The notes: generated by a model not told the origin, from the sequence alone. Positions 1 to 10,071 are shown, counted from the first letter of the stretch. The stretch is 10,071 bases of DNA from an uncultured archaeon (GCA_964583985.1 CAZOYD010000061.1:11631-21701), one strand, 5' to 3'. Translations and numbers: made by a program.

Positions 1-3000
1 TTCTTTAATCTTCAACTCATTTTCACGTTCTTTTATCAATATTTCTTTTTTCCTAAGTTTCTCTTGTTCAACATTATTTTGACTTGTTATTTGGTTTTGA
101 AATTCAAATTCTTCTCTTTCCATTTCGATTTTTTTATGCAATTCTTGTTGCTTTTTTATAAGAGCATTTTGTTTCTTCGATTGGATTTCAATGATTGAAG
201 ATCTTATAAGCTTTAATTCCTCAATCCACTGTATTTCTGCAAAAATTTCTTCAATCTGAAGATATATATCAATGGCATCATCAAACTTTCCTTGCTCAAT
301 TAATTCATTAGCAGTATCCATTAATTTGAATGCTTTTTCCTTGCGTTGTTCTCTAAATTGGAATTCTTCTTTCTGTTTTCTAATTGCAATCTCCTTAGCT
401 CTCAATTCCTTCTTTTCCTGCTCTAGTTGTTGAAATAATGTATTTTGAAATTCAATCTCTTCTTTTTCGTGTTTAATTTTTGCTTCTTCTAATTTTTGGT
501 TTGAAATTTGTTGTTGCTTCTTTCTAAGTAGAAAATCTGAAATTGATTGCTTAATCAATGGTAATTCATCATTCCACCCTATTATCTTAAAAATCTCTTC
601 TACTTTCTGATAATCAACAATACCACCATCAAAATCACCAATCTTTGCTTTAATTTGTGCTTTATCTATGAAAGAAAAAGCTAGCTTTCGTTGTTCCTCT
701 AATTCTTTTGAGATAGCCTCCTTTTTTGATAATGATATGGCCTTTTCATTTAATCTTTCTCTTTCTTTTCGTATTTGCAAGGATTGTTGCTTTTGGAATA
801 AATATTCTTCCCTTTCTTTTTCTAATTGATGTTCTATTGCTTTTTGCTTTCTAAGTTCTTCTTGGGATTGTTTTTCACGTATTGCTAACCTTGTTTCTTT
901 TATTAAATCGGTAGGGAATTGTATTTCATTTAAAATAAGTTCTGCTTTTCTATACATTTCAAGTACTTCAGCATAATTACCTTTACTAACAAGTTTTTCT
1001 GCCTTTTCCAATATATCAAATGCTTCTTCTTTTTTCTGTTTCAAATAGTTCTTTCTTTCCTCTTCCTGTTTAACTTGAATCTGCTTCAATCGTATCCTTT
1101 TTGCTTCATCTTGCATTATTGTTTGAATCTTCTCTTGAAATATTCTATTTTCTTGTTCTTGTTTTAAGTTTTCCTCCAATTCTTTTTGTTTTAGCAATTC
1201 ATCCTCTCTTTTCTTTGCTTGGATTTTATGGATCATCACTTCTACGATATCGGTTGGAAAATCAATTTCACTTAAAATGAGCCCTGCTTGCCGATAAGTT
1301 TGCATTGATAAATCATATTCACCTTTATTCAATAATTCTCCCGCATTATCTAATAAATCAAATGCTTTAACGCGTTGCAATTCCATTCTCACTTTAGCCT
1401 CTTCTTGTTTTTGCACTTCTATTTGTTTTAGTTGTAATCGATTTTGTTCGCGTTCCATTTGTTCCTTGATACTCTTATTGAAAAGCTCTTCTTCTCTCAT
1501 TCCTTCTTGAATTAATTTTTCTTGTCTAGCTTTTTCGTATTCTTTCTCTGCTTTGCGAGAATAAATGGATTCCAAAGTTTCTTTTAATAATTTTAAATAT
1601 CCTCCCGTCCATCCAATTTTTTCTAAGATACTGATGGATTCTACATAATTGGATACGGCGTCTTCATATTTTTCTTGTTTTATCAAGTCATCAGCAGTTT
1701 CTATTAATTTTAATGCATTTTCTTGCTTTTTCAGATTTTCTGCACTGAGTACTTTTTTCTTCTCTAATTCTTCCATTTCTTTCTGAATTTTGATTTTTTC
1801 AACTTCTCTCTGACGTTTAACTTGATCTATAAAGCGCTTATATGTAGTTTCCCGTTTGATACCTTCCTCAACGGTTTTTTGTTTCCATGCTTCTCTCTCG
1901 GCTTTTTTAGATCTTATCTCATTTATAGCTTGATTTATCAATGGTAGTTCTTCCTTCCATTGGATTTGGGCAAATATTTTTGCTACTTCATGATATAAAT
2001 CTATAGCCTCATCATACTTAGCCTGTGAAATCAGATCTTGCGCCTTATTAATCAAAGTAAAAGCTTCATTTTTCCGTGATTCACGATGTTCCAACTCTTT
2101 TTCATACTCTCGAAAGATAAGATCTTGTTTTTTCAACTCTTCTTGTTGCATTCTAATTTGATCAACTAATTGAATTTGAAATTCTCTCTCACTTTGCTCT
2201 TTTAAAAGTCTATTTCTCAGTTCTCTTTCCTTCTTTTCTTGTACATTACGTTTTTTTTGTTCAATTTCTAATATCGAATTCTGGATTAATTCAATTTCGT
2301 CATACCATTGAATGTCCGCAAAAATATTTACTATAGATTTATATATATCACTGGCAGAATCAAAATCCCCTTCCATTAGTTGAACCTGTGCTTCATCCAT
2401 GAGCTGAAATGCCTCCTCTTTTCGCTTTTCTCGATATTCTAATTCGTTTGCTCTTTCTCTCATTTTGATGTCTTGTTGTTTCAACTTCATGCGTTCAATT
2501 TCTAATTGTTGCGATATTTTTTCCTGAAATTCTTGTTCTTTTTGAAGACGAATTAAAGATTTTTCTCTTTCTTCTTGAATAAGTCTTGCTTTTTCTTTCT
2601 TTTTCATTTCAAGTTCTTTAATTGAATTTTCAATGAGAGGTAATTCATCAGTCCAATGGATTTCAGCGAAAATGTTACTTGCATTTGTATAAGCAATGAT
2701 AGCTTTATCTAAATCCCCTTCTCTAATGTATTTTTGCGCTTTTTCTAATATTACAAACGCATCATTTTTCCTTTCTTCTCGGATTTTTAGCTCTTCATTC
2801 TTACTCAACATTACAATTTCTTGCTTTTTTATCTTCACTCTTTCACGATCTAATAGCTCAGAAATTTGTTGTTGAAAAACTAAATGACTTTCTTTCTTCT
2901 CATCTTGTCTTCTGCGTTCTTCATATTCTACTTTTAATTGCTGTTCCTTTAATATATTTACATTATCAATCGTTGTTTTGATGATATTCTTATAAGATTC

Positions 3001-4310
3001 CCATTCACTCCCCAAATTTTCAAGAAAATCTAAAGCTTGTTTGTATTTTAGAATTCCTTGATCAAAATCCCTTTTATTTTGCAATATATCATCAGCATCT
3101 TCAAGGATTTTTAGGAATTCTTGTTCTTGAAGTTCTTCTTTTCTCCTTTTGCCTTCATATCTTAAACGGCGTTCTTCCAATTCCTTATGGGTTCGTTCAA
3201 TGTCTTTACCCTCCTTGGATGTTAAAGTCTTTTGAATCTCATCTATTTTTTCTTCTCTTTTTTTCTTTTGACTTTCGACAGATTTTTCTAATTCTTTTCT
3301 ATTCTCAATATCTTTAATGAAATTCTTGATAGGCTGAATATAGGAATCCCAATCAATTAATTTAAACATTTCAATGGCTTGTTGATATTTTTCAATCGCC
3401 TTATCATAACTTTTTTCTCGTTCCATCCTTTTTCCAATGTCAATAAGAGTAAAAGCATCTGATTGGATTTGCTCTTCATTTAATTTTGCAGCTTCAAGTT
3501 TTTTAGCTGAATATTCATATGCTTGTTCTTTTTTTATAGCTCTATCATCAGCATCATCTTTCACTTTAGTAGATTTAGACTTTTGATATGTATCGAGCGT
3601 TGCTTTATCTTGCTTTAGTTTTTCAACAATTGTTTGTAATTTAATGGTTTGCTCTTGCCACCCAATTGAATTTAGAAGCTCAATTGCATTCTGATAGCTT
3701 AAAATCGCCTCATTATATTTTCTATCTTTTTCATAGAATTTTGCATTATCAATAAAAGCAAACGCATCATTTTGGATTTGTTCTTCTTTCTCTTTTGCGT
3801 ACTTAAACTTGATCAGTTCCTCAGCTTTAGCATCGCCCTTTTTCTGACCAAATACTCCCACAACTTGAGGTTGTGAAGTTTTAGGTATACTTTGAACTTG
3901 TTGATCCTTTAATTTTACTGACAATGCTTGAAGCTTACTCCTTAAATTATCTAATTGTGTATCAGACCAGCCCGCTTGAAAAAGTAAATTGATAGCGGAG
4001 TTATATTGCTCTATAGCATTATTATATTGACCATTCTTTTCAAATTTATTTGCAGCATCCATTAAGGAAAATGCTTGATCTTGGAGACTCTCTAATTGAA
4101 CTTTTAATTCTGCTTGTTGCATTAAACGGTCATTTTTAAGACTCTCTTTTAATCGCTCAACTCGTTCATATATGTCATTAATGCGAAGAGACATATAGCC
4201 ACTTTGTTTCAATAACTCAGCAGCACTTAAATAATTCTCAATCGCATTGTTAAAATCTCCACTTTCTTCATAAAGCTGTGCGGCATCTAAAATCCTTATG
4301 ACCTCTTGAG
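1..4310 (-). repeat. 13 degenerate protein-level repeats, period 76, then 103, then about 116 aa
   Basis: Consensus AFxL(I/M)(D/E)xAxxxxxxGx(Y/F)DxAIxxYxxAxxI(F/L)xxIx(W/F). Anchor aromatic codons start at 4195(Y), 3967, 3658, 3349, 3001, 2653, 2305, 1957, 1609 (all W), 1258(F), 916(F), 574(W) and 226(W). Spacings are 228, 309, 309, 348, 348, 348, 348, 348, 351, 342, 342 and 348 nt. Confidence 0.92.
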
Positions 4311-4332
4311 CAATACTTTCATTTTTTTCCAT
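1..4332 (-). CDS. Giant tandem-repeat helical protein (MIT/TPR-like helical heads plus charged helical linkers), >=1444 aa, C-terminus beyond the window
   Basis: Translated by hand. ATG at 4332 (MEKNESIAQEVIRILDAAQLYEESGDFNNAIENYLSAAELLKQSGY...) and no in-frame stop down to position 1 (...KEILIKERENELKIKE). An in-frame TGA at 4339-4341 bounds it upstream. It is probably absent from the ORF track because it has no stop in the window. E/K/Q/R/I/L-rich, with no signal peptide or TM segment seen. Confidence 0.95.
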   Translation of the reverse strand, partial: MEKNESIAQEVIRILDAAQLYEESGDFNNAIENYLSAAELLKQSGYMSLRINDIYERVERLKESLKNDRLMQQAELKVQLESLQDQAFSLMDAANKFEKNGQYNNAIEQYNSAINLLFQAGWSDTQLDNLRSKLQALSVKLKDQQVQSIPKTSQPQVVGVFGQKKGDAKAEELIKFKYAKEKEEQIQNDAFAFIDNAKFYEKDRKYNEAILSYQNAIELLNSIGWQEQTIKLQTIVEKLKQDKATLDTYQKSKSTKVKDDADDRAIKKEQAYEYSAKKLEAAKLNEEQIQSDAFTLIDIGKRMEREKSYDKAIEKYQQAIEMFKLIDWDSYIQPIKNFIKDIENRKELEKSVESQKKKREEKIDEIQKTLTSKEGKDIERTHKELEERRLRYEGKRRKEELQEQEFLKILEDADDILQNKRDFDQGILKYKQALDFLENLGSEWESYKNIIKTTIDNVNILKEQQLKVEYEERRRQDEKKESHLVFQQQISELLDRERVKIKKQEIVMLSKNEELKIREERKNDAFVILEKAQKYIREGDLDKAIIAYTNASNIFAEIHWTDELPLIENSIKELEMKKKEKARLIQEEREKSLIRLQKEQEFQEKISQQLEIERMKLKQQDIKMRERANELEYREKRKEEAFQLMDEAQVQLMEGDFDSASDIYKSIVNIFADIQWYDEIELIQNSILEIEQKKRNVQEKKERELRNRLLKEQSEREFQIQLVDQIRMQQEELKKQDLIFREYEKELEHRESRKNEAFTLINKAQDLISQAKYDEAIDLYHEVAKIFAQIQWKEELPLINQAINEIRSKKAEREAWKQKTVEEGIKRETTYKRFIDQVKRQREVEKIKIQKEMEELEKKKVLSAENLKKQENALKLIETADDLIKQEKYEDAVSNYVESISILEKIGWTGGYLKLLKETLESIYSRKAEKEYEKARQEKLIQEGMREEELFNKSIKEQMEREQNRLQLKQIEVQKQEEAKVRMELQRVKAFDLLDNAGELLNKGEYDLSMQTYRQAGLILSEIDFPTDIVEVMIHKIQAKKREDELLKQKELEENLKQEQENRIFQEKIQTIMQDEAKRIRLKQIQVKQEEERKNYLKQKKEEAFDILEKAEKLVSKGNYAEVLEMYRKAELILNEIQFPTDLIKETRLAIREKQSQEELRKQKAIEHQLEKEREEYLFQKQQSLQIRKERERLNEKAISLSKKEAISKELEEQRKLAFSFIDKAQIKAKIGDFDGGIVDYQKVEEIFKIIGWNDELPLIKQSISDFLLRKKQQQISNQKLEEAKIKHEKEEIEFQNTLFQQLEQEKKELRAKEIAIRKQKEEFQFREQRKEKAFKLMDTANELIEQGKFDDAIDIYLQIEEIFAEIQWIEELKLIRSSIIEIQSKKQNALIKKQQELHKKIEMEREEFEFQNQITSQNNVEQEKLRKKEILIKERENELKIKE

Positions 4333-9001: not shown

Positions 9002-10071
9002 TTATTTCAAAATATCGGTTAATTCCTTGATTTGAGCATCGAGTTTTTGCTTAATGAGATCTAATTTCCCTTTCTTTTCTTCTAACTCATCAGCAGTGAT
9101 TTCTCCTGTTAATTCTTTCATATCGAAATCTAACGATATTTTTGATATGCTTGATTTCTTGATTTTTAAATCTAGTATCGCTTTTTCAATATTTGCTTTT
9201 TGTTGTGGTGTCATTTGCGAGTCCTTTAAAGGAATATCGCTTGATTCCGTCACGTCAGCAGCTATTTCTTTTTCAACAAGTTCTATTTTTGGAGGAGTTT
9301 TGATTTTTGATGTAGAAGTATTTAATTGAGTAGGATCAATTGGAGTTGGAACAGCATCCTTTTCAACTTGCAAATTAGGAGTAACTTGGACGGATGGAGG
9401 TTTAGTAGGAGTTTGAATGGAGGACGGGGGTTTTACGTTTGATTCAACTAGCTTGACAGGTGACACGATTTTCGGAGGTAAATTATTCAAGGGATTTGAG
9501 ACCTGAGCAAATGGAGAGGTTTTTAATTTATTTCTTGCATCTTTTGGTACCATAGAAATAGTCTTGGGTCTTTGTTTAATCATAAAGTCTTCTGGATTCA
9601 AATCTAAACCACTCTCACTGAGATCTATATTTGGTTGGATAATTGATTCTTGTTCATTCGCTAATTTTTCAGGTGCTTTTTCTGGCATACTAGGCGGAAC
9701 GGTTATTTTTGAAGGTGAAGGGGGGAGAATCGGCTTTTTAAGTTGCTCTGGTTGTTCTTCTTTAATAATTGGTTGCGGTTTCATTTGAGGTGTTTCTGAA
9801 GTGTTTACAACATTCGAATGTGGAGGAGAATTAGATGGAGGAGGGCTCAATGTAGCTTTCGGAGGAATATCTTTAATCGCGTCCTCTTCTTCAATAGCTC
9901 GTTCAACGTGTGTAAATAATGGTGAAGGGGTTGTTTTTGGGGTTTTTTCCATTGATGATGTCTTTTTTGTTGGCAAAGGTAATGGTGGGGGCTTTCTTTC
10001 TATAGATTTTGGAAGTGTTGTTGGTATTGGTTTTTCTTCTATAGGTGTTGTTGGTATTGGTTTTTCTTCTA
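9002..10071 (-). CDS. Hypothetical Pro/Ser/Thr/Lys-rich disordered protein with C-terminal coiled coil / SHOCT-like motif; N-terminus beyond the window (>=355 aa)
   Basis: The ORF-track start at 9976 (TTG) is probably internal, since the frame stays open to the window edge (...EEKPIPTTPIEEKPIPTTLPKSIERKPPPLPLPTKK...). C-terminus: IEKAILDLKIKKSSISKISLDFDMKELTGEITADELEEKKGKLDLIKQKLDAQIKELTDILK*. Confidence 0.85.
   Translation of the reverse strand, partial: EEKPIPTTPIEEKPIPTTLPKSIERKPPPLPLPTKKTSSMEKTPKTTPSPLFTHVERAIEEEDAIKDIPPKATLSPPPSNSPPHSNVVNTSETPQMKPQPIIKEEQPEQLKKPILPPSPSKITVPPSMPEKAPEKLANEQESIIQPNIDLSESGLDLNPEDFMIKQRPKTISMVPKDARNKLKTSPFAQVSNPLNNLPPKIVSPVKLVESNVKPPSSIQTPTKPPSVQVTPNLQVEKDAVPTPIDPTQLNTSTSKIKTPPKIELVEKEIAADVTESSDIPLKDSQMTPQQKANIEKAILDLKIKKSSISKISLDFDMKELTGEITADELEEKKGKLDLIKQKLDAQIKELTDILK
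10015..10071. repeat. Perfect 30-bp tandem repeat (at least 1.9 copies) encoding PIEEKPIPTT on the minus strand
   Basis: GTGTTGTTGGTATTGGTTTTTCTTCTATAG at 10015-10044 is repeated without mismatch or spacer from 10045 to the window end. Confidence 0.9.

Follow-up and report, generated by a model that had tools for sequence, protein, structure and literature searches.

Why does a giant protein of an uncultured archaeon keep a phenylalanine at exactly the same distance before one small domain after another? The question is raised by a 10,071-nucleotide stretch of genomic DNA (GCA_964583985.1, CAZOYD010000061.1:11631-21701; G000:C61:11631-21701 in our set), which we call the window. An open reading frame (ORF) on its minus strand, truncated at the left edge of the window at 1..4332, encodes 1444 residues that include 13 small helical heads, and the residue in question is a phenylalanine (Phe) in the linkers before these heads, at the start of what we call the FQ segment. 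We present evidence that this Phe opens a one-sided hydrophobic stripe on a very long helix, and we tentatively read the stripe as a surface for docking onto another molecule.

Register and conservation of the phenylalanine

The nine Phe codons (Table 1) all lie in the minus-strand frame. A preliminary description of this DNA had placed the residue at a fixed distance before each head, and this is borne out to the residue: for all eight Phe that can be tested, the F of the head's A-F (L at position 874 in the head that starts with A-L) comes exactly 40 residues later. Successive Phe are separated by 116, 116, 116, 117, 114, 114, 116 and 116 residues. The same description held that length variation spares the 40-residue segment, which agrees with our alignment, since the differences in unit length within the window are gaps in the loop between helices 2 and 3 of the head and therefore lie outside this segment. 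It further predicted a ninth head about 20 nucleotides past the left edge. An orthologue, P0004, does have A1450-F1451 there; in this genome the position is unreadable because the 100 bases to the left of the window are N. P0004 has 19 heads in all, with an aromatic at offset -40 for each of the last 14 (13 Phe, 1 Tyr), and its first five heads have shorter, different linkers and no aromatic at that offset.

On the evidence of the unit alignment, the register of the Phe would go beyond repeat ancestry. Pairwise identity among the eight units is only 29%, and six columns are invariant among them: the Phe and five head-core positions (A46, A53, Y69, I75 and I79). The Phe is thus the sole invariant column outside the head. 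The preliminary description had named loss of the residue in homologues as a reason to give up its proposal, and we find the residue retained in orthologues. More than 120 homologues occur in Promethearchaeota/Lokiarchaeota, with lengths of 1640-2340 amino acids and annotations that are all either hypothetical or TPR. In an alignment of a three-head fragment from 120 orthologues (331 columns, mean column identity 64%), only 9 of the 331 columns are invariant; F602 and F834 are among them, and F718 is conserved in 99%. In an alignment-free tally of 1806 heads, 66% have Phe at offset -40, whereas Phe reaches no more than 10% at the remaining linker offsets; 53% have Gln at -39 and 56% have Ile at -36.

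Other regularities accompany this register. The spacings 116, 116, 116, 117, 114, 114 recur in the same order across window 1-2877 and orthologue P0004, and the loop types recur in matching order (W.(D/E)E three times, GWTGGY/GWKGSY, then (F/Y)PT). The resulting six-unit super-repeat of ~693 amino acids is kept even in the clades with proteins of 1653 and 2122 amino acids. Within the first FQ linker, in the motif L-x-x-E-R-x-K-L, all 120 orthologues have E613 and 94% have R614 (window 2491-2496); the Glu occupies a core-type heptad position, and the other linkers are less strict there.

The family has a narrow distribution within the phylum. The protein is present in 65 of the 67 genomes sampled from one family and in 1 of 7 from its sister family, and searches with the query protein found none in ~225 sampled genomes of other families. 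Full-text searches of the literature returned no description of a giant multi-MIT Asgard protein, and the protein family appears to be undescribed in the literature searched.

The long helix, its stripe and the heads

An AlphaFold2 model of a three-head fragment, built with the 120 orthologues as alignment (predicted local distance difference test, pLDDT, 83.8), has a single helix of 91-93 residues run without a break from helix 3 of one head through the linker into helix 1 of the following head (helices 45-135 and 158-250). A single-unit model built from 150 diverse units (pLDDT 94.3; predicted template modelling score, pTM, 0.65) agrees, with helices at 2-58, 62-78 and 82-124. Among 1594 head-to-head segments, insertions and deletions (indels) are confined to the helix 1-2 and helix 2-3 loops, and fewer than 2% of segments have one at any column of the long helix. 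The fixed 40-residue segment is part of this indel-free helix of ~92 amino acids. From helix lengths alone, we infer that each unit would add ~11 nm and that the whole rod would extend ~0.2 micrometre. The FQ segment is not folded back onto a head and forms no helical hairpin in either model, and burial of the Phe within a single-repeat fold, which the preliminary description had listed as a finding that would count against it, is seen in neither.

The Phe opens a narrow, one-sided stripe of the form F-x3-I-x3-L-x6-L-x6-L, with I at +4, L/M at +8, L at +15 and L/I at +22. On a helical wheel of 100 degrees per residue, the Phe lies at 0, I+4 at 40, L+8 at 80, L+15 at 60 and L+22 at 40 degrees. 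Three residues of the following head, F118 (the F of A-F), L121 and L128, lie on the same face at 40, 340 and 320 degrees, and a sector of 120 degrees, from 320 to 80 degrees, contains both the stripe and these head residues. The side of helix 1 that faces the core is in phase with the stripe; helix 3, with its extension, has its core face at 80-180 degrees.

The free part of the helix is 48-54% charged and 21-28% large hydrophobic, with 0-1 Gly/Pro, and its hydrophobicity profile has a Fourier peak at 3.5 residues. Attractive charge pairs outnumber repulsive ones at i+3/i+4 (0.15-0.17 versus 0.08), with no excess at i+5 or i+7. This make-up recalls the single-alpha-helix (SAH) spacers of myosin-10, myosin-6 and INCENP, which share a long Pro-free helix rich in E/K/R/Q, the excess of attractive i+3/i+4 pairs and a prediction as free helix. 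However, only about half of the linker residues are charged, and the large hydrophobics line up, with a 3.5-residue period, in a conserved stripe on one side; SAH domains are not known to have such a stripe. We therefore rejected identity with an SAH domain, the salt-bridge excess notwithstanding, and the earlier view that the linker is not a passive SAH spacer stands. A check for a two-stranded coiled coil found the 3.5-residue peak and the 7-spaced stripe, yet mostly charged d-type positions and roughly balanced g-e' pairs, and a parallel in-register coiled coil held by charge complementarity was set aside for want of any g-e' signal. Together, the composition, the stripe, the salt-bridge excess and the missing g-e' complementarity define the linker as a salt-bridge-stiffened helix with a narrow conserved stripe, and therefore not as a clean SAH and probably not as a canonical parallel coiled coil.

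The heads that punctuate these helices most resemble MIT domains. The whole protein passes the Pfam MIT model (PF04212) with 85.5 bits against a cut-off of 30 (E 2.7e-24), a score that is the sum of several weak stretches. Single heads stay below the cut-off, the best being N-terminal head 2 with 29.6 bits, and the heads within 100-2877 reach at most 18.1 bits or have no MIT match. Several TPR models are also passed by the whole protein (TPR_2 48.4 bits, TPR_1 42.9 bits), and these scores therefore indicate one TPR-like motif per head. The motifs are isolated, one per 114-117 amino acids with free helices between them, and a TPR array was rejected in the absence of a contiguous superhelix of 34-residue repeats. 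In Foldseek searches with the single-unit model the top matches are MIT domains (TM by target 0.57-0.74, root-mean-square deviation (rmsd) ~2-4 A), but with E ~0.2. The best is NRBF2 (4zey; TM 0.67, rmsd 1.9 A), and Sulfolobus Vps4 (2w2u), katanin p60 and VPS4A/B also appear; the entries 5lb7, 5ow5 and 8uc6 are among the MIT fold matches. VIA gave Z 8-9.2 for NRBF2, USP8, katanin, Vps4 and calpain-7, interspersed with TPR proteins and designed bundles and below the level that discriminates among helical matches. The three-head model had no global Foldseek match, only local MIT/TPR matches; a sequence search of solved structures with one unit returned nothing below E 0.1; and the ESM Atlas offered no lead, all scores by features being <0.9 and the matches by shape being generic helix-TPR-helix arrangements.

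We compared the protein with several known systems. With the MIT proteins that we compared (Vps4/CdvC, NRBF2/Atg38, katanin p60, MITD1 and USP8/STAMBP, and the tandem cases calpain-7, Vta1/LIP5 and ULK3) it shares heads predicted to be small asymmetric three-helix bundles and a TPR-like A/Y/A packing pattern, and the whole protein matches the Pfam model. These proteins carry one or two MIT domains, whereas the giant protein has ~19, at residue-fixed spacing and joined by continuous 92-residue helices. NRBF2 couples its MIT domain to a helical dimerisation segment, and no MIT protein is known to have a conserved Phe stripe 40 residues before helix 1. Spectrin and plakin rods share the unbroken continuity from the last helix of one repeat to the first of the next that gives a segmented rod, and a plakin spectrin-repeat fragment (2odv) aligns over model residues 1-107 with Z 8.4. 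Each of the three spectrin helices is long, however, and all ~106 amino acids of the repeat are bundled; in the giant protein helix 2 has only 17 residues, and ~60 residues of each connecting helix are therefore free. With this short bundle, and with no spectrin family among the Pfam matches, a spectrin repeat was rejected, the continuity of helix C into helix A being the only common trait. By analogy, the protein might also be likened to the rulers nebulin and tropomyosin, in which a short motif likewise stands at a fixed register in each repeat of a very long helical protein. Such recurrence is the look of a molecule laid along a periodic partner. The giant protein differs from these rulers in having no homology to them, a repeat of 114-117 amino acids, heads between its helices and no evidence of a filament partner.

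What the stripe may do

We favor, at a little short of even confidence, a model in which a rigid helix, locked in phase, presents the stripe as a surface for docking between molecules. The Phe is the first residue of the one-sided hydrophobic stripe on a long helix that is predicted to be rigid and is additionally stiffened by i+3/i+4 salt bridges. In this model the 40-residue spacing is fixed because each residue gained or lost would turn the stripe by 100 degrees with respect to the head, and so many conserved large hydrophobics on a free helix would imply an intermolecular helix-packing surface. This surface would recur about every 11 nm along the ~0.2 micrometre rod. Most probably the rods would pair with each other, staggered or antiparallel, and next most probably they would hold a partner protein. 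Rod-rod pairing, taken as a claim of its own, is doubtful, although it stands slightly ahead of a heterologous partner; some other role altogether keeps a small share of the odds.

Several observations weigh against a docking surface. The d-type heptad positions are mostly E/K/R, and the g-e' pairs of a parallel in-register dimer show no complementarity, attractive and repulsive pairs being about equal. The structural evidence comes from monomer models, in which the stripe is simply exposed, and the F-I-L ladder at i/i+4/i+8 could merely stabilise the helix. A search of 1.84 billion proteins with a profile of the unit matched 447 cluster representatives at E up to 1e-10; within the 150 strongest of these 447 matches, in proteins of <30% identity to the query protein, the commonest spacing is still 116 amino acids and offset -40 holds L in 17%, I in 12% and F in 11%. 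Remote relatives thus keep the period without the Phe, which is therefore a refinement of the core family and not an architectural requirement. The Phe thus characterises the core family and fills a site that is hydrophobic more widely. Mean-field coupling analysis of 1594 two-head segments (~1012 effective sequences), which as a positive control recovered the helix packing of both heads, gave linker couplings that are local only (i+1/3/4/7), those of the Phe being strongest with Q+1, E-3, I+4 and E-4, and the coupling map contains no antiparallel ladder. The method is blind to the contacts of an invariant residue, and so provides no information on contacts between like positions of two chains; it is also confounded by unit-type and phylogenetic signal, the top long-range pair (columns 24-117) being a phylogenetic artefact that traces to few orthologous unit types.

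Much of this suits the main rival, intrachain stiffening, in which the rod is monomeric, the Phe ladder and salt bridges rigidify the helix and thereby set the distance and azimuth between heads, and the heads do all the binding. The helix is predicted with high confidence by AlphaFold2 as free and straight, the Phe couples most strongly to its own neighbours and attractive i+3/i+4 charge pairs are enriched; an indel-free helix would suit selection for inter-head geometry, and the Phe is dispensable in remote relatives. Yet a stiffener leaves unexplained why a near-invariant aromatic, rather than any aliphatic, should open the ladder, and the large hydrophobics gathered on one face with a 3.5-residue period are unlike known SAH domains. 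We hold this explanation to be possible, though unlikely. Slightly less probable still, in our judgement, is that each linker stripe acts as a rail for a helix or surface of another protein, such as an ESCRT-III polymer or other filament, with a partner periodic at ~11 nm. The conserved one-sided stripe and a period fixed to the residue fit such a rail, as does the presence in the genome of Vps4 and two Snf7-family proteins, and charged linker residues that are invariant or nearly so at specific orthologous sites, such as E613 and R614, suggest specific recognition. Against it, the analysis turned up no candidate partner, and the conserved neighbours of the gene (RACo, a Ras-like GTPase and an E1-like ThiF protein) supply only gene-order evidence within one taxonomic family.

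The preliminary description had itself proposed that the Phe patch plugs into a groove of a head lined by conserved W/Y, or onto the linker of another chain, giving staggered dimers, filaments or a lattice. The Phe is indeed exposed in the monomer models and highly conserved, and half-staggered parallel packing would, by geometry, bring the start of the stripe near a neighbour's head. However, Y69 falls on a core position of the TPR/MIT consensus. The W-bearing loop (unit columns 78-84) couples with residues 3-5 before the head's own AF and not with the FQ region, W81 itself being in no listed pair, and between linker and head, coupling is restricted to residues adjoining a bundle. Given the blindness of the coupling analysis to an invariant residue and its unit-type artefact, these couplings are only a weak argument against a groove for the Phe. 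Nor is the FQ segment folded on the head available to it in cis. The groove thus finds no support in our data, and docking of the Phe onto a head seems to us improbable.

The genome also supplies a comparison for what a head might bind. It encodes Vps4 next to one Snf7-family gene, together with a second Snf7 paralogue, and both Snf7-family (ESCRT-III) proteins (L008:1423-2058 and L009:1384-2037) have C-termini of the form L-x3-[LI]-x2-L-[KR], a spacing like that of the MIT-interacting motif MIM1. The MIM1 consensus, (D/E)xxLxxRLxxL(K/R), has a spacing of 4 then 3, followed by a basic residue. The hydrophobic residues of the FQ segment (F, I+4, L+8) are spaced 4,4, unlike the 4,3 of the genome's ESCRT-III tails, and a role as a MIM1-like MIT ligand was rejected; this mismatch is a further point against docking of the Phe onto a head. 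A ubiquitin-interacting motif (UIM) and an LC3-interacting region (LIR) also fail to fit, for the Ala/Ser that a UIM requires and the i+3 extended-strand spacing of an LIR. That the heads might bind ESCRT-III tails is plausible. In both tails an acidic stretch precedes L-E-D-E-[LI]-x-K-L-[KR].

At its most ambitious, the docking reading would have the rods self-assemble via the stripes that the Phe opens, into a staggered bundle or lattice repeating every ~11 nm. Such an assembly would belong to a cytoskeleton or membrane skeleton restricted to a single family of Lokiarchaeia-type Asgard archaea, and its MIT-like heads, numbering in the hundreds, would capture MIM1-like tails on polymerised ESCRT-III. 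We regard this full scenario as a long shot.

The gene, its surroundings and its family

The ORF in the window is the first part of a gene predicted to have ~2300 codons, which would enter a gap of 100 N at the left edge and continue past it. Exactly 100 N lie immediately left of the window (L003:11531-11630), most likely a scaffold gap, and divide the gene into two apparent ORFs of 1489 and 703 amino acids. The frame beyond the gap is open up to the gap edge and starts inside a repeat unit. Both pieces are colinear with orthologue P0004 (2331 amino acids), with identities of 77% over 1-1444 and 75% over 1629-2331, and relative to P0004 ~99 residues including one head are absent across the gap. 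The apparent stop 46 codons past the window edge and the separate downstream ORF of 703 amino acids are artefacts of the gap. In full-length relatives (P0003, P0004 and others) the protein ends in a head-free conserved tail of ~120 amino acids with a terminal polybasic K-x-K-K(K), found in all four clades inspected; this tail could be a membrane- or nucleic-acid-binding end.

Table 1. Window coordinates of the repeat protein, its register phenylalanines and its heads
Feature	Coordinates	Strand	Remarks
Giant MIT-like repeat protein, first 1444 codons	1..4332	-	ORF list, translation, Pfam, colinearity with orthologue P0004
Five N-terminal heads, residues 10-456	2965..4305	-	shorter linkers of a different kind; no Phe at -40; best individual MIT scores
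F486 codon	2875..2877	-	opens stripe 2788-2877; head F526 40 residues downstream
F602 codon	2527..2529	-	opens stripe 2440-2529; invariant in 120 orthologues
F718 codon	2179..2181	-	opens stripe 2092-2181; 99% conserved in orthologues
F834 codon	1831..1833	-	next residue I, not Q; head starts A-L at 873/874; invariant in 120 orthologues
F951 codon	1480..1482	-	in-frame Phe
F1065 codon	1138..1140	-	in-frame Phe
F1179 codon	796..798	-	in-frame Phe
F1295 codon	448..450	-	in-frame Phe
F1411 codon	100..102	-	own head inside gap left of window; orthologue has A1450-F1451
Head, residues 525-577	2602..2760	-	MIT/TPR-like three-helix bundle
Head, residues 641-693	2254..2412	-	single-unit model pLDDT 94.3; best folds MIT of NRBF2, Sulfolobus Vps4, katanin p60
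Head, residues 757-809	1906..2064	-	
Head, residues 873-925	1558..1716	-	GWTGGY loop type; helix 2-helix 3 loop +1 residue
Head, residues 990-1042	1207..1365	-	FPTD loop type; loop two residues shorter
Head, residues 1104-1156	865..1023	-	FPTD loop type
Head, residues 1218-1270	523..681	-	
Head, residues 1334-1386	175..333	-	

The neighbours of the gene in the window are a corrinoid activase of the RACo/AcsV type, a Ras-family small GTPase and an aspartate kinase. Gene order is kept across three clades (L004, L005 and L007; L003:5985-7568), with aspartate kinase, the Ras-like GTPase and RACo on one side and, on the other side of the giant gene, a ThiF-type E1-like gene of 527 amino acids, a HAD hydrolase and often a UQ_con E2. 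This order may be plain synteny, because all the genomes belong to one family. Towards the other end of the window, an open frame of 355 amino acids without a Pfam or NCBIfam match (9002-10069, minus strand) runs off the right contig end, and a perfect 30-nucleotide tandem repeat of 1.9 copies lies at that end (10015-10071). A second giant repeat protein, P0124 (1624 amino acids; L015:4544-9418, plus strand, G000 contig C32), has a period of ~120 amino acids and a different head type. Several of its units are nearly identical, the FQ motif is absent, and towards the C-terminus its units resemble those of the giant MIT-like protein.

Eukaryotes have no closer known relatives than the Asgard archaea, whose cell architecture is for the most part unexplained. 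The family described here joins a eukaryote-style ESCRT-binding fold to a rod of ~0.2 micrometre with geometry fixed to the residue, and its long helices look like docking surfaces rather than passive spacers. As the one conserved feature outside the heads, the Phe stripe offers a precise and cheap handle for distinguishing self-assembly, a bound partner and a stiff ruler. Should the stripe not mediate assembly, the family would be a tidy example of helical phase constraining repeat length. If it does, these proteins would represent a novel type of archaeal scaffold with MIT-like modules as its building blocks.

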